Of a DNA stretch of 46,657 bases, positions 284-44,017 are shown piece by piece; the stretch's first letter is position 1, and each line of letters opens with the position of its first letter. Source of the DNA: Bacteroidales bacterium (GTDB lineage: Bacteria; Bacteroidota; Bacteroidia; Bacteroidales; JAGODS01). The notes below the pieces were generated by a model, which saw only the letters and a program-made list of their open reading frames with translations, was not told the DNA's origin and made no database searches. The stretch covers positions 1 to 46,657 of the forward strand of contig JAGODS010000001.1 of NCBI GenBank assembly GCA_017998135.1. Direction: 5' to 3'. The position numbers were made by a program, and so were the translations under genes.

Positions 284-3280
284 TTAAAATTTATAATCTC
301 CGTTAACATCTCCAAAACATATAGTTTTCAGGTTGATATTTTGATTGTTAAGATAAATTGTAATTTTTTGGGGAGGAAAATACCAGTCGCCTGATTTAAA
401 GTTTTCAAGTGAGCCTATAAAACGCCTGTTAATAATAAGAGCATCAAGCGGATTTATAATATTATCAGAGTTTACATCAGAGGCTATTCGTTTTATTTTA
501 TCCGATATTTTATATCTGCTAAGATAATTATTAATAAGCAAAAGAGCATCTTCAAAATTAGAGCCGCCCCATTGTTTATTGATATTTGAAGATATGGTAT
601 AAATGCCGTTGCGTAAGTTATTAAATTGAAAATATCCTGTAGAGTCGGATAATACGGAGTCAATAACAATGCTTTCTTTATCTTTTAAGTAAAGCCTTAA
701 TTGGGTGATAGGAGTATTTTCAGAATTGGCATAAGTAATAGTGCCGTCAAGTTTGTAATAGCTTACAGGGATTATATTAATTTTAATGCTGTCGTAAGTA
801 TAGCAGCCTTTATTGTTGGTAGCAGTAACAGAATATATATGGTCGCCAAGATTTAAAAGGGATGTATTAATATTTAATTCGGGATTTTCGGAATTATCGT
901 TCCATTTGTAAAGATAATCATTATTACCGGCATTAAGAATAAAAGTCTGGTCATTGCAAATAGTTGTATCTTTTCCGAGATTAATTTCGGGGAGGTCTTT
1001 TATTTTGATGTTTATTTCGCCTTTGGCAGTACAGATGCCGTTAGAGACAGTAAAATTGTAAATAGTATTTTTTATAGGTTTAGCGTAAGGATAGGGAATA
1101 TCAATTGAATTTAATCCGTCAGCAGGCGACCAGTGAACTGAAAGCGACCTGCTGTCAAATCCAAGACTCACTTTAGCAAAGCCAGAAGTGTTGAGTATAT
1201 TTTTCAGGTAAATCCCGTCTTTATAGGTTATCATAATAACAGGGATTTTAACCTGAGCGCCATAACTTCCTGCAGCAGGAGAGACTAAGCTGTAGCTTTG
1301 CTGTTTATCCACGATAATAACAGCTTTAGCCCCGGCTTCCTGAGCTTTTAAGGCTTTGAACCCAAATTCGCAGTCGCCCCTGTCTATCATAGCTATTTTG
1401 CCTATTAATTTGTCTTGATTGAAGCCGTTGGGGGAGCAGCCGTTATAGCTATTAGCCTGGTCTTTTTCATAAACAAGATTACCTGAAATAAAAGATGTTT
1501 TAACTGAACCGCCGAAGGATGCAAGGGCTATGTTTGTGTATTTTTTATAAACAGGCTCAAATAAAATTAAATAATTTCCTGTAGGCAATATTAAAGAAGG
1601 TGTTAGTTGAACGCTGTCCATACAATTAATAGTAATTTCGGAAGGCGCTTCAACATTGAAAACCGAGATATTAACGGTATTTGAAACAGCGGCGCAGCCT
1701 TCTTTATTAGTAATTACAACAGAATAGCTGCCTGATTCGGAAACAGTCAGATTAGAATTAGTCGCTCCTGCAATATCATTAATACCTTTTTGCCATTGGA
1801 AGTTTGTATTTGGATCCGAATTAGCGAGTAGTGACACTGTTTCTCCTGCACATATATTTATTGAATCTGCAGGAGTAATGCTTGCTTTCGGAGGGTTGCA
1901 GGTGTTATAAGTATAGGCTTTAATACAGAGGTCGTAAGGTATATTTGTCCCCGTTCCAATGGCAGTCCAGTTTTTTCCATTAGTTCCTAACCAACATTTT
2001 CCCGTTTCTATGGTAGGATTGGAATAACCGTACATTTTCATTTCTACAGGTACAGGCTGATTGTAGCCCGGGGTGTAATATTTAATTTTAATAAAGAAAT
2101 CTTTTCCTTTAGTTAATAAAACTTTTGAAGGTAAATCAAAAGTATAATAACCGGGTAAAGGGCAGGTCTGTCCGTATAAAGAGGAAAGCATAGTTCCAAG
2201 AGAAGTGCCGTTGAAACTGTCGTAAATTTCAATATCAATTTTACAGTCAGAAGCAGTAACCCAGGTTCCTACTTTAGTAAGTGGGTTATTATCAACTGTG
2301 GTGAATTTTATTAGGGCATAAGCGCTTTCGTTTTTGTTACCCCAGTCGCGAACCCAGCCCAGGTCGTCATAATAATAAAGCTTTGAAGCAGCATAAAAAT
2401 CATTCTTTACAGGAAAATAAGCATTCTCGGATAAAGCAATTTTGTCATTATAAGAAATATAACCAAAGCCTTTTTCACCCCAACTGCTGCTCCAGCTATT
2501 TTTTATTATCCAGGCGCCAGTACCACCGGCGGTCTGCTTTGTATCGTTCCACCCGACTAATAAAACAGCGTGATTTGCAAATTGTGATGCATCGGGACAA
2601 TAATAGGTATAATTTGATTTGGTATAATATTCATCAGAATAATAGAAAGCCATATATAAAGCTCCATAATCCATAATTGCCTGCTTGATTGCGTCCATAT
2701 CATTAGGAACAAATCGTGCATCGCACACATAAGAGACAGGCGTAAGTCCAGAAGGGCAATTGTTTGCTTTGGCTGTATAAGGGTCATCTTTTTCAGTATA
2801 AGGACCCGAAAGCCTTGCCAGATAAGAAGTAGCCATTAAAGCATTACCGCCCATACAGGAAGCATATTCAAAGTGATGGCAATTATTCATATTGTCTTCA
2901 GACAAATCAAAAGTCCCTGCTTTAAGCATAAGCCAGCGGCTTTCAACAGCGCCTAAAGCGGCAAAAGACCAGCAGGCGCCGCAATCGCCCTGATATTTAA
3001 CTGAAGTCAGCAATCCCAAAGTCCTCAAATCATAAGTTGCAGGAAAATCGTTTTTACTTTTTTTCTTTTTCTTAAAATAATTAGTAAAGTCGGGCTTGGC
3101 GGGCGAAGGTATATAGCCTAAAGGGAAACCGTCTTTGCTGGAATTAATAAACTTATCTGCTTCTATCGCAACTCTATATTTTAAAAAATCAGGATTTAAA
3201 GGAGATAAAACGCCCTCACCCTGCGAATAAGCTTTTATGGCAAATAAGATAAAGAATAATATATATAGTAAACGCTGCAT
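284..3280 (-). CDS. Secreted multidomain papain-family (C1) cysteine peptidase with PA domain, Ig-like repeats and C-terminal dockerin-like module
   Basis: ORF 284..3322. The start is more likely Met15 (ATG at 3280), giving signal peptide MQRLLYILFFILFAIKAYSQ. C1 catalytic motifs are QGDCGACWSFAALGAVES (Cys), ANHAVLLVGW (His) and IIKNSWSSSWGEKG (Asn/Trp). PA-domain-like stretch GKIAMIDRGDCEFGFKALKAQEAGAKAVIIVD. The C-terminus DVNSDNIINPLDALIINRRFIG...CFGDVNGDYKF resembles dockerin Ca-binding repeats. Confidence 0.85.
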   Translation of the reverse strand: MQRLLYILFFILFAIKAYSQGEGVLSPLNPDFLKYRVAIEADKFINSSKDGFPLGYIPSPAKPDFTNYFKKKKKSKNDFPATYDLRTLGLLTSVKYQGDCGACWSFAALGAVESRWLMLKAGTFDLSEDNMNNCHHFEYASCMGGNALMATSYLARLSGPYTEKDDPYTAKANNCPSGLTPVSYVCDARFVPNDMDAIKQAIMDYGALYMAFYYSDEYYTKSNYTYYCPDASQFANHAVLLVGWNDTKQTAGGTGAWIIKNSWSSSWGEKGFGYISYNDKIALSENAYFPVKNDFYAASKLYYYDDLGWVRDWGNKNESAYALIKFTTVDNNPLTKVGTWVTASDCKIDIEIYDSFNGTSLGTMLSSLYGQTCPLPGYYTFDLPSKVLLTKGKDFFIKIKYYTPGYNQPVPVEMKMYGYSNPTIETGKCWLGTNGKNWTAIGTGTNIPYDLCIKAYTYNTCNPPKASITPADSINICAGETVSLLANSDPNTNFQWQKGINDIAGATNSNLTVSESGSYSVVITNKEGCAAVSNTVNISVFNVEAPSEITINCMDSVQLTPSLILPTGNYLILFEPVYKKYTNIALASFGGSVKTSFISGNLVYEKDQANSYNGCSPNGFNQDKLIGKIAMIDRGDCEFGFKALKAQEAGAKAVIIVDKQQSYSLVSPAAGSYGAQVKIPVIMITYKDGIYLKNILNTSGFAKVSLGFDSRSLSVHWSPADGLNSIDIPYPYAKPIKNTIYNFTVSNGICTAKGEINIKIKDLPEINLGKDTTICNDQTFILNAGNNDYLYKWNDNSENPELNINTSLLNLGDHIYSVTATNNKGCYTYDSIKINIIPVSYYKLDGTITYANSENTPITQLRLYLKDKESIVIDSVLSDSTGYFQFNNLRNGIYTISSNINKQWGGSNFEDALLLINNYLSRYKISDKIKRIASDVNSDNIINPLDALIINRRFIGSLENFKSGDWYFPPQKITIYLNNQNINLKTICFGDVNGDYKF

Positions 3281-3392
3281 AAATTTAAAAATGATTAGAT
3301 GCAAAATTAAATATTTTATCATATCCCTTTATGTTAATTTTTAAAAAGATTGTAAATAATTAACAATTATAAAATGTTAAACATTTTTTGTT

Positions 3393-12977: not shown

Positions 12978-14192
12978 TTATTGTATGCTTATCTTGTATG
13001 TTTTTATTAAATTGTTGGCAGTAAATCTGATAATATATAACCCGGGATTAAGTAAAGTGGTTGGTATTTTTAAATTATAAGAACCCTTAGATTTATTCTC
13101 ATTTTTAAGCAAACAGATAGTTCGTCCTGAAACATCGCTAATACTAATATTAATAATTGCATTTTCATTAATAAAATAGGTTAAATTGATTTCAGAAGAA
13201 GCGGGATTTGGAAAGGCGTTCAGATAAATTTTGTCTGAAGATGTATTATTATCTACTGAAGCAGGATTATATATTTCTGCAATAGCGGCTGCAGTTGCAG
13301 TTACAGATTGTGTTATTTTTACAGTCTGTTCTTTATTATTGGCTGATTTATCAATAAGATCATTGGCAGAATGATGATGGGGCGACATGTGATTTGTTCC
13401 GAACATAGAGTATAAGCCTTCAGAAGGCATAATTGCTTTATATCCGCTTTTCCAGAAGGCTGCCATATCCGAAGAGGCGCCATAAGGCATTGGGACATTT
13501 TTTACTGTAAAACCAGGTATATACATTGCAGTATAACCCGCATATAGCTTGCGAAAGGGAACGGAATTGCTGTCGAGATAAACATCAGAGTTGATAGGGT
13601 CGCCGGGATATAAATAGGAAATAGCATCCATAGCCATTACACCGATTATTTTATCCCCTTTTTTCTTAGCTTCTGATGCATAAGCCGTACTTCCTAAAAT
13701 TCCCTGCTCTTCTCCTGAAAAACAAATAAGTTTTATAGTTCTTTTAAAATCATAATTTGCTAAAACTCTACCGGCTTCCATTGTAGCGACTGTTCCGCTT
13801 CCATTATCATCGGCTCCCGGAGCGCTTTTGGCATACACATCATAATGTGCTCCAATGATTACTGATGTATCCTGACTTATTTTCCCATATTTAATAGCTA
13901 TTACATTTGGAATGTGTTTTGAGTTATATGAATGTAAATAAACTGTATCATAGCCAAGTCTTTCAAAATATTTTTTAAGATAATTTGAAGATACAATCGC
14001 GTCTGTGGATAATGAATATCTTTCAATGCTTTGAAGATAAGCGAGATTTTTCCATAAGGTATCAATATTAACCTTATCGACGATTTTTTGGATAGTTTGG
14101 TCATAAGGATGAAGAGATTGGGTAAAAACCTTTGAATTACTTGTAAATAATAGTATATTTATAACTAATAGTAACAATAAATAACGTTTCAT
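12978..14192 (-). CDS. M28-family aminopeptidase with T9SS type-A C-terminal sorting domain
   Basis: 404 aa with a signal peptide. M28 metal-ligand motifs are GAHYDV, GADDNGSG, FSGEEQGILGS and HHSANDL. The last ~85 aa (IYLNAFPNPASSEINLTY...GLYIIRFTANNLIKTYKISIQ) are a typical Por/T9SS C-terminal domain. Confidence 0.85.
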   Translation of the reverse strand: MKRYLLLLLVINILLFTSNSKVFTQSLHPYDQTIQKIVDKVNIDTLWKNLAYLQSIERYSLSTDAIVSSNYLKKYFERLGYDTVYLHSYNSKHIPNVIAIKYGKISQDTSVIIGAHYDVYAKSAPGADDNGSGTVATMEAGRVLANYDFKRTIKLICFSGEEQGILGSTAYASEAKKKGDKIIGVMAMDAISYLYPGDPINSDVYLDSNSVPFRKLYAGYTAMYIPGFTVKNVPMPYGASSDMAAFWKSGYKAIMPSEGLYSMFGTNHMSPHHHSANDLIDKSANNKEQTVKITQSVTATAAAIAEIYNPASVDNNTSSDKIYLNAFPNPASSEINLTYFINENAIINISISDVSGRTICLLKNENKSKGSYNLKIPTTLLNPGLYIIRFTANNLIKTYKISIQ

Positions 14193-15755: not shown

Positions 15756-16226
15756 ATGACGGAAATAATAGAAAAAATATTAGAAAATTATCCTGATGCC
15801 AAAAGGGACAGCTTAATACCCCTACTTCAGGATGTTCAGGATAAATTGGGTTACATCTCTGAAGAATCAGTAGTAATTGTCGGCAAACATCTGAATCTGC
15901 CGACAAGTAAGATTTTTGGGGTCGCTACCTTCTATAACCAGTTCAGATTTGAACCTAAAGGCAAATATCATATACAGGTATGCAGGGGAACTGCCTGTCA
16001 CGTGTTAGGTTCATCAACAGTATTACAGGAGCTTGAAAAACAATTAAAACTAAAAGCCGGTCAAACTTCTAAAGATAAACTTTTTAGTTTAGAAATTGTT
16101 GCTTGTATTGGCGCCTGTGGTTTAGCTCCAGTTATTACACTTAATGGCGAATTTATTGCCAAAGTGGATTCTCAAAAGATTCAAGATTTAGTTAAAAACA
16201 TTAAAGAGCAGGAGATACAAAAATGA
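15756..16226 (+). CDS. hydC: [FeFe]-hydrogenase NuoE-like [2Fe-2S] subunit (HydC/HndA type)
   Basis: 156 aa. The thioredoxin-like ferredoxin pattern CRGTACHV...CIGACGLAP is typical of the NuoE/24-kDa family. The stop overlaps the next start (ATGA at 16223). Confidence 0.85.
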   Translation: MTEIIEKILENYPDAKRDSLIPLLQDVQDKLGYISEESVVIVGKHLNLPTSKIFGVATFYNQFRFEPKGKYHIQVCRGTACHVLGSSTVLQELEKQLKLKAGQTSKDKLFSLEIVACIGACGLAPVITLNGEFIAKVDSQKIQDLVKNIKEQEIQK

Positions 16227-18151
16227 GTTCAAAAGAAATAATTATCAATTTTTTAAATTGCAATATAGATGAAAATAATGCAGAACTAAAACAGCTTAGT
16301 TCTTCTTTACTCAGAGAAAAAATAGAAAGACCTGCAATCTTTATAGGTGCAGGAACTTGTGGACTTGGCGCTGGTGCTGATAAAACACTCGCTGAGGTTG
16401 AAAAATATCTGCAAACTAAAAATATTAATGCTGACGTTTATCAGGTAGGTTGTATTGGACTTTGTGCTGCTGAACCTATTATGGACATTCAATTACCCGG
16501 GTATACAAGAATTTCATATAAACATATATACTATGAAAAAGTAAATGCTTTGCTTGATAAGGTCTTCTCTCTAGATCCTCCTACAGAAGATCTTATCGGG
16601 CAGTTTACTGACAATAGTAACAGAAGCTGGGAAAATATACCTGAATTTAATGAACATCCTTTCTTTAAACCTCAAAGAAGAATAGTATTAAAAAATTGCG
16701 GAATAATAAATCCAACAAGTATTGATGAATATATTATAAGAAAGGGTTATAAAGCTTACCTTAAGGCTATTAAAACTACAACTCCTGAAGAAGTTTGTAA
16801 CATAATAGAACTTAGCGGCTTAAGAGGCAGAGGAGGAGGCGGTTTTCCTACAGGTAAGAAATGGAAAATGGCTAACAAGGCAGTTGCCGGGCAAAAATAT
16901 ATAATATGTAATGCAGACGAAGGGGACCCCGGCGCATTTATGGACAGGGCTGTTATTGAAGGTGACCCACACAGGTTATTGGAAGGTATTGCTATTGGCG
17001 CTTATGCTATTGGCGCTACCAAAGCTTATATATATATACGTGCCGAATATCCACTCGCTATCAAGCGTCTTGTTAATGCTATTAAACAAGCTAAAGAATA
17101 CGGGTTGCTTGGTAAAAATATATCTGGCAGCGGCGTTAATCTGGATATTATTATTAAACAGGGAGCGGGAGCATTTGTATGCGGCGAAGAGACAGCTTTG
17201 ATGCACAGTATTGAAGGGAAAAGAGGGATGCCTCGTCCCCGACCACCTTTCCCTATTGAAAAAGGCTTGTTTGGAAAACCTACTGTTATTAATAATGTAG
17301 AAACCTTTGCTAATGTTTCTGATATTATGTTGAATGGCGCCGAATGGTATAATTCTGTGGGTACAGCAACAAGTAAAGGTACTAAGGTTTTTGCTTTATC
17401 AGGTAAAATAAATCTTACAGGACTGGTTGAAATACCTATGGGAACAACTATAAGAGATATTATTTTTAAGATAGGTGGTGGCATAAAGAATAAAAGGAAA
17501 TTTAAAGCGGTTCAAATTGGAGGTCCTTCAGGCGGTTGCATTACCGAACAAAACCTTAATATTGAAATTGATTACGAATCACTGAAAAAGGTAGGAGCTA
17601 TGATGGGTTCAGGCGGTTTGGTTGTTATGGATGAAGATAATTGTATAGTGGACATAGCAAGATTTTTTATGGATTTTATCCAGAAAGAAAGTTGCGGTAA
17701 ATGTATCCCCTGCAGAGAAGGTACAAGAAGGATGCTTGAAATATTAGAAGGCTTAACAAGGAAACCGAATAGTAGTAATCCAAATGAAGCATTAGAAAGA
17801 TTTAAAGGAGTTACTAATATAGAAAACCTTGCCAAAGTAATAAAAGACACCTCTCTTTGCGGATTAGGTCAAACAGCTCCAAACCCAATTCTTTCAACTC
17901 TAAAATGGTTCAGGGAAGAATTTGAAGAACATTTATTTGAAAGAAAATGCAGGGCTAATGTGTGCAAAGATTTAAGAATTTTCTCCATAGATGTTGACAA
18001 ATGCACTGGCTGCACAGTTTGTTCTAAAAAATGCCCTGTTAATGCTATTATTGGTTCTAAACAAAAAGCGCATTTTATTGTTGAAGATAAATGTATAGGC
18101 TGCGGCAATTGTCTGGAAGTATGCAAATTTAATGCAGTCTTTATTAAATAA
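16223..18151 (+). CDS. hydB: [FeFe]-hydrogenase NuoF-like NAD(P)H/FMN-binding subunit (HydB/HndC type)
   Basis: 642 aa. It has an N-terminal extra [2Fe-2S]-type domain (GTCGLGAG...CIGLCAAEP) and the FMN/NADH motifs GRGGGGFPTGKKW, NADEGDPGAF and ESCGKCIPCREG. The C-terminus carries 2x[4Fe-4S] motifs, CTGCTVCSKKCP and CIGCGNCLEVC. Confidence 0.9.
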   Translation: MSSKEIIINFLNCNIDENNAELKQLSSSLLREKIERPAIFIGAGTCGLGAGADKTLAEVEKYLQTKNINADVYQVGCIGLCAAEPIMDIQLPGYTRISYKHIYYEKVNALLDKVFSLDPPTEDLIGQFTDNSNRSWENIPEFNEHPFFKPQRRIVLKNCGIINPTSIDEYIIRKGYKAYLKAIKTTTPEEVCNIIELSGLRGRGGGGFPTGKKWKMANKAVAGQKYIICNADEGDPGAFMDRAVIEGDPHRLLEGIAIGAYAIGATKAYIYIRAEYPLAIKRLVNAIKQAKEYGLLGKNISGSGVNLDIIIKQGAGAFVCGEETALMHSIEGKRGMPRPRPPFPIEKGLFGKPTVINNVETFANVSDIMLNGAEWYNSVGTATSKGTKVFALSGKINLTGLVEIPMGTTIRDIIFKIGGGIKNKRKFKAVQIGGPSGGCITEQNLNIEIDYESLKKVGAMMGSGGLVVMDEDNCIVDIARFFMDFIQKESCGKCIPCREGTRRMLEILEGLTRKPNSSNPNEALERFKGVTNIENLAKVIKDTSLCGLGQTAPNPILSTLKWFREEFEEHLFERKCRANVCKDLRIFSIDVDKCTGCTVCSKKCPVNAIIGSKQKAHFIVEDKCIGCGNCLEVCKFNAVFIK

Positions 18152-18170
18152 TTTATTAAATAATCAAATT

Positions 18171-19889
18171 ATGAACATAGAAGTTAATAATAAAAAGATA
18201 AAAGCAAAAAAAGGCGAAACTATTTTATCAGCCTTAAATCGCAATGGAATAGAAGTTCCTACCTTATGCCATATGAAAAATTTCTTTCCTTCAGGTGCCT
18301 GTCGTATGTGTGTAGTTGAAGTTAAAGGCAAAGGCAATCTAATTACATCCTGTTCCTACCCTGTTGAAGATGGAATGATAATACAAACACATTCGCCCAG
18401 AGTTGTAAATGCCCGGAAGACTATAGTAGAACTTCTCTTATCCAATCATCCTGACGATTGTCTGTATTGTGAGCGTAACGGTAATTGCGAACTACAGAGT
18501 TTATCTGAAAATCTAAATGTAAGAGAACGCCGAATAACGGGTGTGAAAAATCGCTATAAAATGGACAGGTCAAGCCCGAGCATAGTAAGAGACCCCGCCA
18601 AATGTATTCTTTGCGGCAGATGTGTCAGAGTTTGCGAAGAGGTTGAAAATGTATCAGCTATTGAATTTGTTGGCAGGGGTAATAAAACTGTTATTAATAC
18701 AGCATACAATAAAGGTTTAAACCTTTCAAGTTGTGTCAATTGCGGACAATGTATCTTAGTTTGCCCAACAGGCGCTTTACATGAAAGAAACAATCTGTCA
18801 GATGTGCAGGAAGCTCTTTCAAATAAAGAAAAACACGTTATTGTTCAGTATGCACCGGCTATTTCAATATCTCTGGCTGAAGAGTTTAACCTAAAACCCG
18901 GTAAAGATATTAATGGCATTATGAATGCAGCATTAAGAAAAGTAGGATTTGACAGAGTCTTTGACGTTACCTTCGGAGCCGATTTAACTATTATGGAAGA
19001 ATCTGCCGAGCTTATACACAGAGTACAAAATGGCGAAACTTTACCTATGTTTACAAGTTGCTGCCCGGGCTGGATTAAATATTTAGAAGAGTTCAGACCT
19101 GAATTTATACCAAATCTTTCGTCCTGCAAATCTCCTCAACAGATGACAGGCGCTATGATTAAAAGCTATTATGCTGAAATAGAAAATATAGCTCCTGAAA
19201 ATATTTACACTGTTTCTATTATGCCCTGCACAGCTAAGAAATTTGAATCTCAAAGAGAAGAAATGATAAGACAGGGGATTAATGATATTGACTGCGTACT
19301 GACTACCAGAGAACTCGGCAGATTGATAAAACTATACGGAATAGATATTAATAAATTAGAGCCCGAACTGGCTGATTCTCCTTTAGGTACAAGAAGTTCG
19401 GCAGGGAAGATCTTTGGCGCTTCAGGCGGTGTGATGGAAGCTGCTATCAGAACAGCCTATTTCAAACTCACAGGCAAAGAGATGACACAATTTAAAATAG
19501 ATGAACTGCGCGGACTTGATGGTATTAAAGAAGCTAAAATTGAGATAGGTAATATTACTCTTGGAGTGGCAGTAGTCAGTGGTTTGCAAAATGCTAAAAC
19601 CATACTAGACCAGATTGCAGCAGGAAGGAAAGATTTACATTTCATAGAATTTATGGCTTGTCCGGGGGGTTGTATTAACGGGGGCGGTCAACATATAGGA
19701 GCTGATGAAGCAGCTATTAAAGCAAGGATGAGATCACTCTACGACATTGACGATAAAGACTCTATCAAAGTTTCTCATAAAAACCCGCAGATAGTTGAAA
19801 TATATGAAAAATACCTTGAAAAACCTTTAAGTCATAAATCTCACAAACTTTTACATACTCATTATAATAAAAGAAACGTTCTATTATAA
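18171..19889 (+). CDS. hydA: [FeFe]-hydrogenase catalytic subunit (NuoG-like N-terminus plus H-cluster domain)
   Basis: ORF 18132..19889. The likely start is Met14 (18171), just after the hydB stop. An N-terminal 2Fe-2S and several 4Fe-4S Cys clusters are present. The canonical H-cluster motifs are FTSCCPGW, MPCTAKKFE and EFMACPGGCINGGGQ. Confidence 0.92.
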   Translation: MNIEVNNKKIKAKKGETILSALNRNGIEVPTLCHMKNFFPSGACRMCVVEVKGKGNLITSCSYPVEDGMIIQTHSPRVVNARKTIVELLLSNHPDDCLYCERNGNCELQSLSENLNVRERRITGVKNRYKMDRSSPSIVRDPAKCILCGRCVRVCEEVENVSAIEFVGRGNKTVINTAYNKGLNLSSCVNCGQCILVCPTGALHERNNLSDVQEALSNKEKHVIVQYAPAISISLAEEFNLKPGKDINGIMNAALRKVGFDRVFDVTFGADLTIMEESAELIHRVQNGETLPMFTSCCPGWIKYLEEFRPEFIPNLSSCKSPQQMTGAMIKSYYAEIENIAPENIYTVSIMPCTAKKFESQREEMIRQGINDIDCVLTTRELGRLIKLYGIDINKLEPELADSPLGTRSSAGKIFGASGGVMEAAIRTAYFKLTGKEMTQFKIDELRGLDGIKEAKIEIGNITLGVAVVSGLQNAKTILDQIAAGRKDLHFIEFMACPGGCINGGGQHIGADEAAIKARMRSLYDIDDKDSIKVSHKNPQIVEIYEKYLEKPLSHKSHKLLHTHYNKRNVLL

Positions 19890-19924: not shown

Positions 19925-21931
19925 ATGGGGCATTCAGGAAAAACTAAATTGGTAACTACTTTAAAAGACCGCTGCAGGATGTGCTATACCTGTGTTAGGG
20001 AATGTCCTGTTAAAGCTATTCGTATTATAAACGGTCAGGCTGAGATAATAGATGAGCGTTGTATAGGTTGCGGCAATTGTGTTAAAGTATGCAGCCAGGA
20101 TGCTAAAGTATTTTTAAGACATACCAGCGAAGTAGAAGCACTCTTAAAAACAGGAGACAAAGTAGCAGCTATCTTAGCACCCAGTTTTCCCTCTGAGTTT
20201 GAAGAAATAAAAGATTATCATAAAGTAATAGGAATGATAAGAAAACTTGGGTTTCATTATGTTGTGGAAGTTGCTTTTGGAGCAGATGTTATAGCAAAAG
20301 CATATAAAAAACTATTACTTAAAGGAGATAACAAACATTATATATCATCTGATTGTCCCGGTATTGTATTTTATATAGAACAATATTACCCTGAATTAGT
20401 CGGTAACCTTGCACCTATTGCTTCACCAATGGTCGCAACAACAAGAATAGTTAGAAAAAAATATGGAGAAGACCTTAAAGTAGTATTTATTGGACCCTGC
20501 ATTGTAAAAAAAGCGGAGTCCAATGAATTAAACGAAGTAATCACCTTCAGGGAATTACGCGAAATGTTTAATAAACATAAAATCAATGCTAATAATTCCG
20601 AACCCTCGGAATTTGATGAACCTATCGGAGGGAGAGGAGCAAAGTTTCCACTAAGCCGAGGCTTACTACAAAATATGAATCTTAACGAAGATACTTACCA
20701 GGGTAATATTATAGTAGCAGATGGTAGGATAGATTTCAGGGATGCTATTAAAGAATTTAAAAATGATCTTGACCAATCTTCGCATTTTGAGCTATTATGT
20801 TGCGAAGGCTGTATTATGGGACCTGGTATGTCGCCAAATGGCAAAAGATATGCCCGGCAGTTAAAACTTAATAACTATGTACGCAAAAAAAACGCAAAGC
20901 TTAACATTGAAAAATGGAAAAAAGAAGTAGATAGTTTTGCTGAATTGGATGTATCTCAACATTTTATGCCAAACGATAGACGTATAGGAAGTCCAGGTGA
21001 AGAAGAAATAAGAGCAGTGCTGCAGGATATGGGAAAATTTACTTACCGCGACCATCTCAACTGCGGAGCCTGCGGCTACGACACCTGCATTGAACATAGT
21101 ATAGCTATCATACAGGGCTTGGCAGAAACCGAGATGTGCCTACCATTCACTATTGAGAAACTACATAATTATATTAAACAATTAAATATATCTAAAGAAA
21201 AATTAAGCTCAGTCAGGGCAGCTCTGATGCAATCCGAGAAACTGGCTCATATGGGACAATTATCAGCGGGCATAGCACACGAGTTAAATAATCCACTTGG
21301 TATTATAACAATGTATAGCAATATATTGCTTGACGAATGCGCTGAGGACTCACAGTTAAGAAAAGACCTTAACCTGATTTCCGAACAGGCGAACAGGTGT
21401 AAAAATATAGTAGGCGGATTACTAAACTTTGCAAGAAAAAGCCAGGTTAATTATACAGAAATTAATGTTATATCGCTAATCAATCATTGCATCAATTCAG
21501 TAATAATACCAGAAAATGTAAAAATTAATATTATAACAGACCTAACAGATACAAACATAAATGTAGATAAAGAGCAGATGACGCAAGTGTTTACCAACCT
21601 TATAAAAAATGCAATTGAAGCTATGCCAGAGGGAGGTAATATAACTATAAGGATAGAGCAAAAAGATAATGATTTTATATTCTCTGTAAAAGATAGCGGA
21701 ATCGGAATTAATAAAGAACATTTGGATAAAAATATATTTGAACCCTTCTTTACAACGAAAAAAGTAGGTAAAGGCACAGGTTTAGGTCTAGCATTGATTT
21801 ACGGAATAATAAAGATGCACAAAGGAACTATAACAGTAGAATCAAATGCCGACCCTGCAGAAGGACCAACAGGGACAACTTTTAAAATTACAATACCTAA
21901 AAAAATTATAGAAATCACTAAAATAAAATAA
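19925..21931 (+). CDS. hydS: Sensory [FeFe]-hydrogenase-like protein fused to a histidine kinase (group C, HydS-type)
   Basis: 668 aa. It has an N-terminal 2x[4Fe-4S] ferredoxin region (CRMCYTCVRECP, CIGCGNCVKVC). The H-domain aligns without gaps to HydA but has altered motifs: ISSDCPGI, GPCIVKKAE and ELLCCEGCIMGPGM. An extra Cys cluster CGACGYDTC follows. HisKA H-box SAGIAHELNNPLG, N-box NLIKNAIEAM, G1 VKDSGIGI and G2 GTGLGLALI complete the kinase. Confidence 0.85.
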   Translation: MGHSGKTKLVTTLKDRCRMCYTCVRECPVKAIRIINGQAEIIDERCIGCGNCVKVCSQDAKVFLRHTSEVEALLKTGDKVAAILAPSFPSEFEEIKDYHKVIGMIRKLGFHYVVEVAFGADVIAKAYKKLLLKGDNKHYISSDCPGIVFYIEQYYPELVGNLAPIASPMVATTRIVRKKYGEDLKVVFIGPCIVKKAESNELNEVITFRELREMFNKHKINANNSEPSEFDEPIGGRGAKFPLSRGLLQNMNLNEDTYQGNIIVADGRIDFRDAIKEFKNDLDQSSHFELLCCEGCIMGPGMSPNGKRYARQLKLNNYVRKKNAKLNIEKWKKEVDSFAELDVSQHFMPNDRRIGSPGEEEIRAVLQDMGKFTYRDHLNCGACGYDTCIEHSIAIIQGLAETEMCLPFTIEKLHNYIKQLNISKEKLSSVRAALMQSEKLAHMGQLSAGIAHELNNPLGIITMYSNILLDECAEDSQLRKDLNLISEQANRCKNIVGGLLNFARKSQVNYTEINVISLINHCINSVIIPENVKINIITDLTDTNINVDKEQMTQVFTNLIKNAIEAMPEGGNITIRIEQKDNDFIFSVKDSGIGINKEHLDKNIFEPFFTTKKVGKGTGLGLALIYGIIKMHKGTITVESNADPAEGPTGTTFKITIPKKIIEITKIK

Positions 21932-21942
21932 AGGAGTTAATT

Positions 21943-22338
21943 ATGCAAACCGAACAAAAAACAATACTATTAGTAGATGACGACGTGGACTATTTATACC
22001 AGACACGTTTGAAAGTAGAAAGCTTTGGCTTTAAAGTTATAACCGCAGACACTCAGAAAGAAGCTGAAGAACTGATTGAAAACATTAGACCAGATTTAGC
22101 AATTCTTGACTTAATGATGGAAAATGATGACAGTGGCTTTATTCTTTCGTACAAAATTAAGAAAAAATATCCGGATGTACCTATTATTATAGCAACTGCA
22201 GCAACAGCCGAAACAGGAATCAATTTTGATATCAATGAAGATGAAAACAAACACTGGATAAAAGCTGATACATATCTTGATAAAGGTATCAGAACCGACC
22301 AGCTTCAACGAGAAATCAATAGAATGCTCAAATTATAA
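21943..22338 (+). CDS. Stand-alone response-regulator receiver domain protein
   Basis: 131 aa. It has the acidic pocket LLVDDDVD, the phospho-acceptor context LAILDLMME, and conserved T/K positions (IIATAA, YLDKG). No output domain is present. Confidence 0.85.
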   Translation: MQTEQKTILLVDDDVDYLYQTRLKVESFGFKVITADTQKEAEELIENIRPDLAILDLMMENDDSGFILSYKIKKKYPDVPIIIATAATAETGINFDINEDENKHWIKADTYLDKGIRTDQLQREINRMLKL

Positions 22339-22340
22339 TA

Positions 22341-22479
22341 AGTAGCGGGTATTGGGTACTGGGTATCTGGTATCAATTATAGAATGATAAATACTAATTA
22401 TTATATATTAAATTTTAAATGATTAGTTATGAAATTAAAATACCAAATACTCAATACTCACTACTCGCTACCAAATACT
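22341..22479 (+). repeat. Inverted pair of heptamer tandem repeats (GGGTATT family) flanking an AT-rich ~65-nt spacer
   Basis: The left arm is AGTAGC GGGTATT GGGTACT GGGTATC TGGTAT (22341..22374). The right arm is ATACCAA ATACTCA ATACTCA CTACTCG CTACC (22440..22472). The arms are about 26/33 complementary, and 4 of the 7 mismatches are G-T, so they would be G-U pairs only in a plus-strand RNA. Confidence 0.7.
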
Positions 22480-22494
22480 AAAAATTAAAAATAA

Positions 22495-23625
22495 ATGGTT
22501 AATACACCTTTAAAAATACTTGTGGTAGATGATGAGCCGGGTATATGTTCCGGAGTGATTCGTATTCTACATAACTTTAAGGTAAGTTATCCTTTTATGG
22601 AAGAAGATATAACGTTTACCATAGAAGAAGCCGGTACAGGGAGGGAGGCTATTGCGAAAATAGATAACCTAAAACCGGATATAGCTCTTTTAGACAATAA
22701 ATTGCCGGATATTGAAGGAGTTGAAGTGCTTGATTATATCAAAAAACAGCAATTGGATATAATTGTAGTGATGATAACTTCTTTTGCTTCGCTTGAACTT
22801 GCCGTTAAAGCAACAAAAAACGGAGCTTATGATTTTATCCCCAAACCTTTCACTTCTCAGGATTTGCGCTCTTCAATAGAAAATATATCTAAACATATTT
22901 TTCTAAAAAGGATGACAGCCAGGTTGAATGAATCAGCCAAACACGTAAGATTTCAATTCTTATCAGTTTTATCACACGAGCTTAAAACGCCATTAAATGC
23001 AATTGAAGGCTATCTTAATATGATGTCAGAACAACAATTTGGCGATAACATTAGCTCTTATAAAGAGATTATAGAACGTTCGCTTTTAAGATTGAAAGGT
23101 ATGAGAGGGCTGATAATGGATATGCTTGATTTGACTAAAGTGGAATCTGGAAAACCAACACAAAAGATAATAGAACTTGATTTGACGACAATAGCCCAAA
23201 GAGCAATTGATACTATTAAACCTATTGCCATTCAGAAAGATGTAGATGTTTACTTAAATACCAAAGAACAATTTATAATCAATGCCGACGAAGAAGATAT
23301 AGAAATTATTTTTAATAACCTATTATCAAATGCTGTTAAATATAATAAAAAGGGAGGGAGGGTTGATTGTTACATACAAAAAGAAGCTAACAATATTAAA
23401 ATAACAGTTTCCGATACAGGCATTGGAATGACAGAAGAAGAAATGCAACATTTGTTTAAAGATTTCTCACGAATTAAAAATCCTAAAACAAAAAACATTA
23501 CTGGCAGCGGCTTGGGCTTATCTATTGTAAAAAAAATAACAGAATTATATAAAGGCAATGTAAGCGTTAAAAGTATTCCCGAAAAAGGAACTAGCTTTTC
23601 TGTGATTTTGCCTACAAACATTTAA
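22495..23625 (+). CDS. Hybrid receiver-histidine kinase (N-terminal REC, then HisKA and HATPase_c)
   Basis: 376 aa. REC motifs are ILVVDDEPG, ALLDNKLPDIEG and FIPKPF. The H-box is LSHELKTPLNAI, the N-box NLLSNAVKYN, G1 VSDTGIGM and G2 GSGLGLSIV. There is no TM segment and no DNA-binding domain. Confidence 0.85.
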   Translation: MVNTPLKILVVDDEPGICSGVIRILHNFKVSYPFMEEDITFTIEEAGTGREAIAKIDNLKPDIALLDNKLPDIEGVEVLDYIKKQQLDIIVVMITSFASLELAVKATKNGAYDFIPKPFTSQDLRSSIENISKHIFLKRMTARLNESAKHVRFQFLSVLSHELKTPLNAIEGYLNMMSEQQFGDNISSYKEIIERSLLRLKGMRGLIMDMLDLTKVESGKPTQKIIELDLTTIAQRAIDTIKPIAIQKDVDVYLNTKEQFIINADEEDIEIIFNNLLSNAVKYNKKGGRVDCYIQKEANNIKITVSDTGIGMTEEEMQHLFKDFSRIKNPKTKNITGSGLGLSIVKKITELYKGNVSVKSIPEKGTSFSVILPTNI

Positions 23626-41783: not shown

Positions 41784-42620
41784 ATGAAATATTACAATTA
41801 TCATACACACACCAATTATTGCGACGGTTCTGCAACACCTGAGAAATATATAGCCCAGGCTAAAGAAATGAAGATGTCAGCTTTAGGGTTTTCTGCCCAT
41901 TCTCCTCTACCTTTCATAAATACCTGGAGTCTTAAAGCCGATATGGTCAATGATTACCTCACTGCTATAGATAATCTGAAGAATATATATATAAAAGATA
42001 TTGCAGTATTTAAAGGATTGGAAATAGATTATATTCCCGGTATGAGTTACAATTTCAGAGAAATGATTAAAGTCTATAAGCTTGATTATACTATCGGTTC
42101 GGTTCATCTTGTAAAAGTAGAAAGTAGCGATAAACTGTGGTTTATTGACGGACCTGCGAATAAATACAGTGAAGGTTTAAAAAATTTATTTAATAATGAT
42201 GTAAAGCTTGCTGTTACTAATTATTTCAAACAACTCAGGGAGATGATTGTCAATGAAAAACCTGATATTATAGGACACCTTGACAAAATAAAGATGAATA
42301 ACAAAGAACAGTTTTTCAGTACACAGGATAGTTGGTATAGAAAATTAATCTCTGACACTTTGAAAACTATAAAAAATTCAATAGTTGAAATCAATACAAG
42401 AGGTTTATATACGGGAAAATATGATGAGTTTTATCCTGCAGCTTTTGTGATAGAAGAATGTTTTAAACTTGATATACCTGTAACCATAAGCTCAGATGCC
42501 CATAATCCTGCTGATTTAACAAGCTATTATGATGAAGCTGTTTGTATGCTTAAAACTATTGGATATAAAGGGGTGAGTGTCTTTAAAGGCAATAAATGGC
42601 AGTTTGAGAAATTTACCTGA
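41784..42620 (+). CDS. HisJ-family histidinol-phosphatase-like PHP-domain protein
   Basis: 278 aa. The N-terminal YHTHTNYCDGS, GFSAHSP, GSVH, IGHLD and SSDAHNP are the PHP metal-ligand motifs of the HisJ family. Confidence 0.75.
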   Translation: MKYYNYHTHTNYCDGSATPEKYIAQAKEMKMSALGFSAHSPLPFINTWSLKADMVNDYLTAIDNLKNIYIKDIAVFKGLEIDYIPGMSYNFREMIKVYKLDYTIGSVHLVKVESSDKLWFIDGPANKYSEGLKNLFNNDVKLAVTNYFKQLREMIVNEKPDIIGHLDKIKMNNKEQFFSTQDSWYRKLISDTLKTIKNSIVEINTRGLYTGKYDEFYPAAFVIEECFKLDIPVTISSDAHNPADLTSYYDEAVCMLKTIGYKGVSVFKGNKWQFEKFT

Positions 42621-43065
42621 GCCTGTCTGCTGATTTAATTTTTTGTATATCTTTATTGATATAGGTACCTGAAAGATATATCAATACCATTGTTATTAAT
42701 GGTAGTATGGATAAAAAAGTAAAATTGGTTTTTGTTCCGAGTTTAGCCTCAATATTATCTGTATAAAAGAAAATAACCACAACAAATAGAAGGTTTAGTA
42801 AAAATAGTATTTTTACTATTAAAACTTGTCTTTGCATATTTTTATAAAGGAAAATATTGACCAGCGCCCCAAGACCGATAAGAACTGCAATTATTATCAG
42901 GGGCAAAGTATTGACAGAAATAGAAATGCTTGGAACAGGGGTTAATTTAGTCAGGCCTGTAATAAAAAATATATATTCGTAATATTTAGCCACAGGAAAG
43001 AAAAATATTACTGTAAAACAAACAAAGGTAATAAAAAGAAATATTGATTGTATTCGTTGTATCAT
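42613..43065 (-). CDS. Small 4-TM membrane protein (DUF4293-like by recollection)
   Basis: 150 aa. The N-terminal MIQRIQSIFLF and C-terminal KSADRLR match what I remember of DUF4293. The 3' end overlaps the convergent PHP gene by 8 nt. Confidence 0.6.
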   Translation of the reverse strand: MIQRIQSIFLFITFVCFTVIFFFPVAKYYEYIFFITGLTKLTPVPSISISVNTLPLIIIAVLIGLGALVNIFLYKNMQRQVLIVKILFLLNLLFVVVIFFYTDNIEAKLGTKTNFTFLSILPLITMVLIYLSGTYINKDIQKIKSADRLR

Positions 43066-43100: not shown

Positions 43101-43715
43101 TTATTTTTTATTTTTCAAACTATCTTTTAGTTTGATTTCCTCTACTATCTTAATAATATCATCTTTGGCAAATTTTCTTATCCAATATACCCACATTATA
43201 AAAGTAAAGAGGTAAATAATATAAGTAAAAAGTAAATGGTGGTTAAAATTCATATATTTTGGAGCATATATAATAGTAAAGACTAATCCAATTACTCTTA
43301 AAACATTAAGAAAATTAATAACAATAATGCCAAGAGGAATATACCATAATTTCTGTTTCCAGGGACCCCAGAAAGCTATTATAAAAGCGCTATAGGTAAA
43401 CATTAGTTCCAGCCCTAAGCAACGGTTAGATATAAAAAGCTCATTATAATTATTATAATTAATATCACCATTATAGAAAACTAACATATCATGTGGGGCA
43501 CCCTTAACTCCGTTAGAAGCATAAGAAAGCACTGTCAGATCCATAAAATTACTAAGCAGATTTAATAAGCCTTTGCTAAAAAAAAGGACGTTTCTAAGTA
43601 CAAGACTATTGACAGCCTGCCAAAAACGTGTTTCCCGTAATATCTCGTTAAAGATATACCAGATTAAAAATAAAATACAGATTTTAATGAGGAATACAAC
43701 TAATTTGCTCTTCAC
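43101..43715 (-). CDS. Exosortase/archaeosortase-like polytopic membrane protein (candidate XrtF-type or unclassified)
   Basis: 204 aa with about 5-6 TM segments. The ordered candidate catalytic residues are Cys99 in SNRCLGLE, Arg140 in NFLNVLRVIG (41 residues after the Cys) and His159/160 in NFNHHLL. This is the Cys...Arg...His layout of the exosortase family. The call rests on motifs only. Confidence 0.5.
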   Translation of the reverse strand: MKSKLVVFLIKICILFLIWYIFNEILRETRFWQAVNSLVLRNVLFFSKGLLNLLSNFMDLTVLSYASNGVKGAPHDMLVFYNGDINYNNYNELFISNRCLGLELMFTYSAFIIAFWGPWKQKLWYIPLGIIVINFLNVLRVIGLVFTIIYAPKYMNFNHHLLFTYIIYLFTFIMWVYWIRKFAKDDIIKIVEEIKLKDSLKNKK

Positions 43716-43758: not shown

Positions 43759-43965
43759 CTATTTCTTTAAGATAGATTTTTTTAAAGCGTAAAATCTTTT
43801 TGCACCATAAGCAATGCCGGCAGTCAATAAATAAAGCAAACCGCCTTCTAATGGGATACCTGGTCCGCCTCCGCCTGGAGGGTCAATCGGGAAAGGGGGT
43901 GGTGCCTGAGCAAAAACTGCAACAGCAAAGAAAATCAAACAATATGTAATTAATAATTTTTTCAT
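43759..43965 (-). CDS. 68-aa protein made of a signal peptide, a Pro/Gly-rich linker and a PEP-CTERM-style sorting tail
   Basis: MKKLLITYCLIFFAVAVFA|QAPPPFPIDPPGGGGPGIPLEGG-LLYLLTAGIAYGA-KRFYALKKSILKK. It lies 43 bp upstream of the exosortase-like gene on the same strand. Confidence 0.5.
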   Translation of the reverse strand: MKKLLITYCLIFFAVAVFAQAPPPFPIDPPGGGGPGIPLEGGLLYLLTAGIAYGAKRFYALKKSILKK

Positions 43966-44017
43966 TTTGGGTAAATGATTTAATCTGCAAAATTAATAAT
44001 AATTTTTCTATTAGCAA

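Follow-up and report, generated by a model that had tools for sequence, protein, structure and literature searches.

Only one mechanism has been demonstrated in the exosortase/archaeosortase superfamily, that of ArtA from Haloferax volcanii, which cleaves PGF-CTERM proteins at the motif, attaches them to lipid, and needs Cys173, Arg214, and Arg253 (PMC9263693). Among Bacteroidota exosortases, a phenotype is known only for XrtF of F. johnsoniae, which together with its partner is needed for surface colonization and biofilm and whose substrates are unknown (PMC10936215). Dedicated one-to-one sorting systems have been described by Haft as having consecutive genes for enzyme and target, a tripartite tail, and an N-terminal signal peptide (bioRxiv 10.1101/2023.06.07.544157). 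The PID-CTERM/XrtX family of Bacteroidota is already known, being curated in NCBIfam (NF046080-82) and Pfam (PF28310), and is experimentally unstudied. Its canonical cassette, represented here by locus L005 of Hymenobacter sp. BT559, consists of a 56-aa PID_CTERM protein (48.7 bits; PF28310), XrtX (233 bits), and an NF046082 protein (103 bits); the 56-aa protein reads MLRLVPIAALLLIALASQA|QPGSGGPTPTG-VPIDGG-ISVLLAGGAVYAV-RRLRRRA. Here, we analyzed a 68-aa mini-ORF and the exosortase gene beside it in a 46,657-nt stretch of contig JAGODS010000001.1 (referred to in full as the window) from a Bacteroidales bacterium (assembly GCA_017998135.1). We think it likely that the mini-ORF encodes a dedicated mini-substrate of the exosortase whose gene lies 43 nt downstream and that it is a divergent member of the Bacteroidota PID-CTERM/XrtX sorting system.

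The mini-ORF occupies positions 43759..43965 on the minus strand. It starts with ATG, has no in-frame start codon further upstream, and ends with a TAG stop at 43759-43761; the ORF had been reported in a preliminary description of the window, and we recovered it with an identical translation. The predicted signal peptide covers residues 1-19 (MKKLLITYCLIFFAVAVFA; 43909..43965, on the minus strand like all segments that follow), as judged from hydropathy, family comparison, and the preference for Gln after the cut (the Q-rule). By inspection, it consists of MKK and a 16-residue hydrophobic core and then VFA|Q, with a mean Kyte-Doolittle value of 2.69 for residues 4-19; together with the family comparison, this gives the mini-protein the N-terminal signal peptide expected of PID-CTERM proteins. 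Signal peptidase I (SPase I) is blocked by Pro at +1, which argues against the end at AQA21|P22 in the preliminary description, whose claim that a signal peptide is present otherwise stands. The likelier site is VFA19|Q20, since Bacteroidetes SPase I substrates usually expose Gln at +1 (PMC5837995) and a small-x-small|Q site occurs in 110 of 150 PID-CTERM family representatives.

Next comes a mature Pro/Gly-rich segment (residues 20-36, QAPPPFPIDPPGGGGPG; 43858..43908; ∼64% G+C), whose QAPPPxP[ILT][DE] start is conserved in the clade that the window locus forms with its relatives. It is followed by a signature motif, I37-P-L-E-G-G42 (43840..43857), a hydrophobic helix (residues 43-55, LLYLLTAGIAYGA; 43801..43839), and a basic cytoplasmic tail (residues 56-68, KRFYALKKSILKK; 43762..43800). 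The helix and the basic tail, both proposed earlier, were borne out by a hydropathy of 1.62 and by a charge of +6 (six K/R, no D/E), and the mini-protein has the combination of helix and extreme C-terminal basic cluster that is expected of PID-CTERM proteins; a basic cluster is present in all homologs. The Pro/Gly stretch, earlier counted as 22 residues, runs from P22 to G42 and has 21. Pro and Gly account for 65% of residues 20-42, and the G+C content of the corresponding codons is 64%, versus 33% for the window. Following six-frame translation of the 46.6-kb window, 21-residue spans with at least 12 Pro/Gly were found only at the mini-ORF locus, either in the same frame or antisense, and no further ORF in the window ends with the pattern of motif, hydrophobic stretch, and basic cluster. 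Of the whole precursor, only segment 20-36 is predicted to outlast both cleavages, along with I37-P38 and perhaps L39-E40.

The tail of the mini-protein is homologous to those of PID-CTERM proteins. The NF046080 (PID_CTERM) model aligned residues 39-59 with profile positions 3-23 of 25 (21.4 bits; E = 1.6e-4). A hidden Markov model (HMM) built from 265 canonical tails of other lineages, which included no sequence from the window clade, matched the mini-protein at 33.1 bits (E = 1.9e-9). This was the only significant match among 862 six-frame segments of the window, the next best having an E value of 0.43. The HMM aligns pdvPIDGGLSlLLAAGagYGvKK to PGIPLEGGLLYLLTAGIAYGAKR, and the homologous tail reads I37-PLEGG-LLYLLTAGIAYG-KR. 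Given E = 1.9e-9 on our own HMM and 21.4 bits on NF046080 against a cutoff of 26, tail homology is supported, whereas curated membership is sub-threshold.

Because both the HMM and the family alignments put I37-P-L-E-G-G42 on V-P-I-D-G-G, we take IPLEGG to be the counterpart of VPIDGG. Relative to PIDGG, PLEGG has two conservative changes (I>L and D>E) and the invariant Pro; across an alignment of 12 mini-proteins (A2), the invariant residues are P38, L46, G50, and Y53. The preliminary description had left the motif as either IPLEGG or PID. The first is upheld by the HMM and family alignments, which assign PID to the mature peptide. We rejected PID26-28 as a sorting motif, given that it scored −3.3 bits on the 265-tail HMM, that the HMMs align I37-PLEGG, and that it is PVD in a 99%-identical contig (L024). 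This second P-[ILVT]-[DE] element (43882-43890) opens the mature peptide inside the clade-conserved PPPxP[ILT][DE]. It looks much like the sorting motif, as though part of that motif had been copied, and canonical members often have “D[IV]DPEV-PIDGG.”

The gene downstream encodes an XrtX-like exosortase of 204 aa with a GTG start (43101..43715, minus strand), which was matched by NF046081 and TIGR04178. It passed the exosortase/archaeosortase signature TIGR04178 (48.5 bits; cutoff, 23). On the XrtX model NF046081, it scored 109.5 bits, which is under the cutoff of 170, yet XrtX was still its best subfamily (54 bits for XrtF and 53 for XrtY), and its orthologs in the clade scored 106 to 115 bits. 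Residues C99, N137, R140, and H159 were invariant in 23 aligned XrtX, XrtX-like, and XrtF sequences. The enzyme is a polytopic membrane protein. Based on a hand analysis of hydropathy and the positive-inside rule, the helix that runs into the cytoplasmic loop PWKQK would carry Cys99 at its outer end; the next helix would have Arg140 in its outer half and would be followed by a periplasmic loop containing His159. This layout is consistent with catalysis at the outer face of the membrane. No solved structure for a relative was found at E<=1.

The GTG start is backed by ten full-length orthologs, and the public call of this exosortase (P0002, 147 aa) is too short compared with the 204 aa that the orthologs support. 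We also noted that the ortholog of L004 (239-925) has an insertion of ∼24 residues (PHGWYQTTGPEMLPPNSHNLIIGGL) in the loop ahead of the catalytic-Cys helix, which partly repeats the flanking “SHNFITGAP.” In a rough neighbor-joining tree, the window clade formed its own branch inside a sub-threshold XrtX-like group that was sister to canonical XrtX. Within this group, L011 and L014 have canonical PIDGG mini-ORFs, and L009 and L016-L018 have none.

Searching 5.8 billion proteins with the 68-aa sequence returned only one relative (P0001, 99% identical), so homology of the mini-ORF became visible only via synteny and then through profiles. The window exosortase has about ten orthologs with 50 to 67% identity, and a mini-ORF was directly upstream in every orthologous contig with readable upstream DNA. 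Homologs of the mini-ORF were found in three other distinct contigs, encoding 67 aa (L001/L002), 68 aa (L003/L008, from an uncultured Bacteroidales metagenome-assembled genome [MAG]), and at least 63 aa (L004, where the ORF reaches the contig edge). The mini-ORFs of L001, L003, and L004 are 40 to 45% identical and retain the three-part layout. The N-terminal half of the clade plan consists of a signal peptide ending in small-x-small|(Q/G), [AG]PPPxP[ILTG][DE], and a short variable acidic/Gly stretch, and the C-terminal half consists of [IVG]-P-[IL]-x-x-[GN]-L, LL..G..Y, and a basic tail. Compared in pairs, the clade mini-ORFs showed differences of 0.46/0.34/0.59 by codon position, with all indels in frame, as expected from a translated gene under constraint. 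The L024 contig, which is 98.95% identical, differs in the mini-ORF by one nonsynonymous change (I27V, conservative) and one synonymous change, and with only two substitutions dN/dS from this pair is unusable. The mini-ORF is uncalled in the public gene sets of the ENA contig L001 (3755-3958) and of the NCBI MAG contig L003 (3669-3875).

Scanning of genome contigs with a single exosortase query confirmed no loci, and an alignment-based query recovered the XrtX loci; the metagenome scan yielded only 2 loci. A mini-ORF was directly upstream of the exosortase gene in 14 of 20 XrtX-type loci (the window, L001/L002, L003/L008, L004, L005, L010-L015, L019, L021, and L022). Beyond Hymenobacter, XrtX loci in genome and metagenome contigs had mini-ORFs of 59 to 72 aa with [VI]P[IVL]DGG directly upstream. 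The preliminary description had held that a lack of homologous small ORFs or similar C-terminal tails in any genome with the exosortase-like gene would speak against it, and such ORFs are present at these 14 loci. Its central claim, that the mini-protein ends in a PEP-CTERM-type signal read by the neighboring exosortase and would be reduced to a small anchored or modified peptide, is supported by this gene order as well as by the NF046080 and 265-tail HMM matches, TIGR04178, and the motif alignment.

We also used profiles to survey the wider family. The A2 profile matched 3055 proteins at E<=1e-3, the best 120 of which were 44 to 104 aa long, and several matches bear the NCBI name “PID-CTERM protein-sorting domain-containing protein.” Within these best 120, the motif was PIDGG in 110, PVDGG in 6, and PLDGG in 2. 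Because the signal peptide in the A2 profile could bias the search towards small proteins, we also searched 1.84 billion cluster representatives with a profile restricted to 33 positions of the tail. At E<=1e-3, this tail-only profile matched 2656 clusters, of which the best 150 all measured 40 to 119 aa. The family therefore comprises at least 2656 clusters at 50% identity. Across the best 150, the segment from the predicted |Q site to the motif had a median of 13 residues (range, 6 to 65), with Pro making up 18% of it, Asp 16%, and Gly 14%. The corresponding span of the window protein, 18 residues between Q20 and P38, is typical of the family. Among the strongest matches, the PID-CTERM tag thus seems to occur essentially only on mini-proteins (e.g., L010, 2488-2667, and L012, 2694-2903). 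In one large subfamily of 59 aa, the signal peptidase site and PIDGG are separated only by “Q[NSK][CS][ND]PN[VI],” in which a Cys is often conserved.

The third cassette gene in the clade encodes a DUF4293 membrane protein, which in the window has 150 aa (42613..43065, minus strand; PF14126, 95.9 bits). It was directly downstream of the exosortase gene in 4/4 clade contigs with readable layout, as read from the DNA for three contigs and from the called-gene table only for the P0008 contig. The exosortase stop and the DUF4293 start overlap by 4 nt in three relatives and are separated by a 35-nt gap in the window. DUF4293 is probably translationally coupled to the exosortase in the clade, which may offer a first clue to what this domain does; a literature search on DUF4293 found nothing relevant. 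The possibility that DUF4293 is a diverged NF046082 or TIGR04127 protein was rejected based on the lack of any BLASTP alignment, an hhalign probability of 0.5% (A3 versus A4), and no support from NCBIfam.

Consensus promoters of Bacteroides and Flavobacterium have the form TTG-N19-TAnnTTTG (−33/−7). A putative Bacteroidota-type promoter with these elements, TTG-N19-TAATTTTG, is located at 43988..44017 (minus strand), in the 52-nt spacer between an Rrf2 gene and the mini-ORF. The window has 1 exact match to TTG-N19-TAnnTTTG versus 1.6 expected by chance, i.e., the count is not enriched. TAnnTTTG ∼20 nt upstream of the start codon also occurs in the orthologous loci L001 and L003. We infer that the 43988..44017 element may act as the mini-ORF promoter. 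A sigma-70 scan, which is uninformative for Bacteroidota, gave 12 matches versus 12.4 expected. No intrinsic terminator was predicted between the mini-ORF, exosortase, and DUF4293 genes.

The processing pathway that we infer would begin with transcription of the mini-ORF from its own Bacteroidota-type promoter, probably together with the exosortase and DUF4293 genes. The 68-aa precursor would be exported by Sec and cut by SPase I at VFA19|Q20, and its N-terminal Gln would probably be cyclized to pyroglutamate (pyroGlu or pGlu), which forms at the N-terminal Gln of most Bacteroidetes secreted proteins (PMC5837995, PMC10653852). Helix 43-55 and the +6 tail would then anchor the precursor in the inner membrane such that the tail is cytoplasmic and I37-PLEGG42 lies at the periplasmic face. 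There, the exosortase (Cys99, Arg140, and His159) would cleave in or just after the motif, at or after P38-L39-E40, and the upstream piece would be passed to a lipid or glycan acceptor, by analogy with archaeosortase A, or else released. The predicted product is a Pro/Gly-rich oligopeptide of ∼19 to 21 residues, pGlu-APPPFPIDPPGGGGPGIP(LE). Because it would be too short to fold, its role may be that of a tag, stalk, or handle at the surface or envelope rather than that of a domain.

Several observations weigh against reading the mini-ORF as a PID-CTERM/XrtX substrate. Both curated models gave sub-threshold scores (21.4 versus 26 for NF046080 and 109.5 versus 170 for XrtX), and neither the 99%-identical P0001 nor P0028, the L002 ortholog, is annotated with PF28310. 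The canonical third gene is absent, with no NF046082 match. The Asp/Glu of the motif is not kept in 3/4 clade members, and because PIGEN, PIAGN, and PITDN replace PLEGG in the relatives, the motif that is recognized in the clade is uncertain; the tails of these three relatives are recognized weakly or not at all by the canonical-tail HMM. No adjacent mini-ORF was found in 6/20 XrtX-type loci, including L009, L017, and L018, where none lies upstream of the sub-threshold XrtX-like genes. The putative one-to-one pairing refers to the 46.6 kb of the genome that the window covers. Our literature search found no paper on PID-CTERM or XrtX and no expression, proteomic, or biochemical evidence for any member. 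To our knowledge, neither transpeptidation by bacterial exosortases nor its acceptor has been established.

The strongest conservation among the mini-proteins is found in the helix (L46, G50, and Y53), not in the mature part, and the helix is kept in the three clade members that have lost the signature Asp. Additionally, 13 residues, the median for the mature part, would be very few for a functional product, and a tight operon with two membrane proteins would suit a complex subunit. Such features would be expected if the mini-protein were an uncleaved single-pass partner of an exosortase/DUF4293 complex, serving as a pseudo-substrate, regulator, or scaffold with its Pro/Gly arm in the periplasm. 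We consider this unlikely. With its invariant-Pro motif, helix, and extreme C-terminal basic cluster, the mini-protein matches cleaved sorting tags exactly in layout, and helix conservation is typical of sorting tags, too. Moreover, the enzyme retains its catalytic Cys and Arg, which argues for catalysis on something, and there is no other candidate substrate nearby.

Alternatively, the ORF could be the precursor of a freely released peptide (a signal, antimicrobial, or RiPP-like product), with the exosortase acting only as a maturation protease by hydrolysis. The ∼20 residues left after both cuts are the usual size of a peptide signal, a pyroGlu N terminus and high Pro content would confer protease resistance (PMC5837995, PMC10653852), and the combination of conserved tags with mature sequences that are highly divergent between lineages recalls peptide systems guided by a leader or tag. 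However, no genes for modification enzymes, transporters, or receptors are linked in any locus, it is the composition (P, D, and G) that is conserved rather than a specific sequence, and with the single archaeosortase studied so far, the substrate becomes attached to lipid instead of being released (PMC9263693). We therefore view a free peptide as improbable.

Finally, although an AT-rich window will often contain ORFs of this length by chance, gene callers passed over the mini-ORF in two related contigs, and the single-sequence search gave only one, 99%-identical relative, a chance frame, lipoprotein, or ordinary small secreted protein unrelated to the exosortase is highly implausible given a position and layout kept across contigs with exosortases only 50 to 67% identical, the E = 1.9e-9 HMM match, a composition unique in the window, codon-like substitutions, and the lack of a lipobox or Rfam match. 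The sole Cys of the mini-protein, C9, sits within the hydrophobic core, no Rfam match rose above noise, and PADLOC returned no match to a defense system. As far as sequence evidence goes, a chance ORF, lipoprotein, RNA element, and defense gene are excluded. The only Pfam match of the mini-protein, ATP-synt_E, was considered spurious; the Pfam set was scanned without PF28310.

A dedicated mini-substrate of the adjacent XrtX-like exosortase thus remains our preferred reading. Tail homology, the identity and conserved residues of the enzyme, and the gene order are shown by the sequences, whereas the processing steps and the fate of the product are predicted. More speculatively, the window clade might represent a distinct exosortase subtype in which PIDGG has given way to P-[IL]-x-x-[GN]-L as the recognition motif and DUF4293 was recruited as a different membrane partner. 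The sole job of such a subtype, and of the PID-CTERM enzymes in general, would be making a lipid-/glycan-linked or released pyroGlu-capped oligoproline-like peptide of ∼10 to 20 residues. We regard this proposal as possible but doubtful.

Genes for the Rrf2 regulator and an S46 (Dpp7-like) peptidase lie upstream of the mini-ORF. Otherwise, the contig is ordinary chromosome of an anaerobic Bacteroidota-like organism; it encodes an [FeFe] hydrogenase, a peptidase with a type IX secretion system (T9SS) tail, FtsH, CorA, and others, and no polysaccharide genes were found within the window. We noted a 668-aa protein (19925-21931, plus strand) that combines an [FeFe]-hydrogenase large-subunit-like domain with Fe-S modules, HisKA, and HATPase_c. 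Its gene closely follows a trimeric-type [FeFe] hydrogenase set (15756-19889) and closely precedes two response-regulator genes (21943-23625), and the protein resembles a sensor kinase for H2 or redox state that was derived from a hydrogenase. The T9SS-tailed protein is an M28 peptidase (12978-14192, minus strand) with a Por_Secre_tail sorting domain, and the organism thus also uses type IX secretion C-terminal sorting, separate from the exosortase cassette. Positions 284-3322 (minus strand) encode a papain-family protease of 1012 aa that has lectin and PA domains.

Judged by its sequence, the locus is a previously unrecognized, sub-threshold member of the PID-CTERM/XrtX type with a variant motif and a different third gene. 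The gene alone adds little, being a missed member of a family that curators have already modeled. Current models and gene callers miss the whole lineage, however, with the mini-ORF uncalled in two contigs and the exosortase given as 147 aa in one call. The locus widens the known tolerance of the motif (PLEGG, PIGEN, PIAGN, and PITDN) and the range of partners in XrtX-type systems (DUF4293), and it points to a large family, of at least 2656 clusters, with cargo that is little more than two sorting signals. Because the substrate is tiny and encoded beside the enzyme, the cassette would be convenient for learning bacterial exosortase chemistry. If the window clade were a distinct subtype, its product would be a class of envelope molecule undescribed in Bacteroidota, and the cassette would be the first tractable model for exosortase acceptors with one enzyme and one tiny substrate.

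Compared with known systems, the window exosortase has a Cys and an Arg that correspond in kind to Cys173 and Arg214 of ArtA. Unlike the window system, ArtA is archaeal, has large S-layer glycoprotein cargo, and reads a PGF motif, and archaeosortase models gave at most 28 bits on the window enzyme. The PEP-CTERM/XrtA (EpsH) system of Proteobacteria likewise has a tripartite C-terminal tag, an N-terminal signal peptide, and a polytopic Cys/Arg membrane enzyme. The window cassette differs from it by lacking P-E-P, a TIGR02602 match, and nearby polysaccharide genes, and the window enzyme scored 15.3 bits on Pfam Exosortase_EpsH, below the cutoff of 25.7. Classical exosortases are 8-TM enzymes of the EpsH type and ∼280 to 500 aa long, versus ∼200 aa for the window enzyme. 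Whereas classical PEP-CTERM sorting is one-to-many, with dozens of varied cargo proteins and exopolysaccharide (EPS) loci, the window system looks one-to-one, with cargo that is almost only signals. The cassette has the features of Haft's dedicated systems (consecutive genes, a tripartite tail, and a signal peptide), and one such tail was found within the 46.6-kb window. It also resembles JDVT-CTERM with its adjacent intramembrane protease, described by Haft, in having one target per enzyme and consecutive genes; in that system, however, the enzyme belongs to an unrelated family (Rce1/CPBP-like rather than an exosortase), the JDVT motif differs and contains Cys, and the cargo is a real protein.

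Within the Bacteroidota, the XrtF system of Flavobacteriia (TIGR04128 and TIGR04127) shares with the window a small exosortase with the same invariant residues and a small membrane protein encoded downstream. Unlike XrtF, the window enzyme scored 54.4 bits on the XrtF model (cutoff, 90), and its partner has no TIGR04127 match; a true XrtF locus (L020; 230 and 142 bits) has no adjacent mini-ORF. Differences from canonical PID-CTERM/XrtX are the motif (PLEGG in the window and PIGEN, PIAGN, or PITDN in its relatives, versus PIDGG in 110 of the best 120), the DUF4293 third gene, and an exosortase that is ∼20 to 30 residues longer and forms its own branch. Like PID-CTERM/XrtX, the window precursor has a small-x-small|Q signal peptide, a short Pro/Gly/Asp-rich piece, [VI]-P-[IL]-[DE]-G-G, LL..G..YG, and a K/R tail. 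Both systems are found in Bacteroidota, and in both the precursor gene lies upstream of a gene for an exosortase of ∼175 to 205 aa with the Cys/Asn/Arg/His set, followed by a gene for a membrane protein of ∼150 aa.

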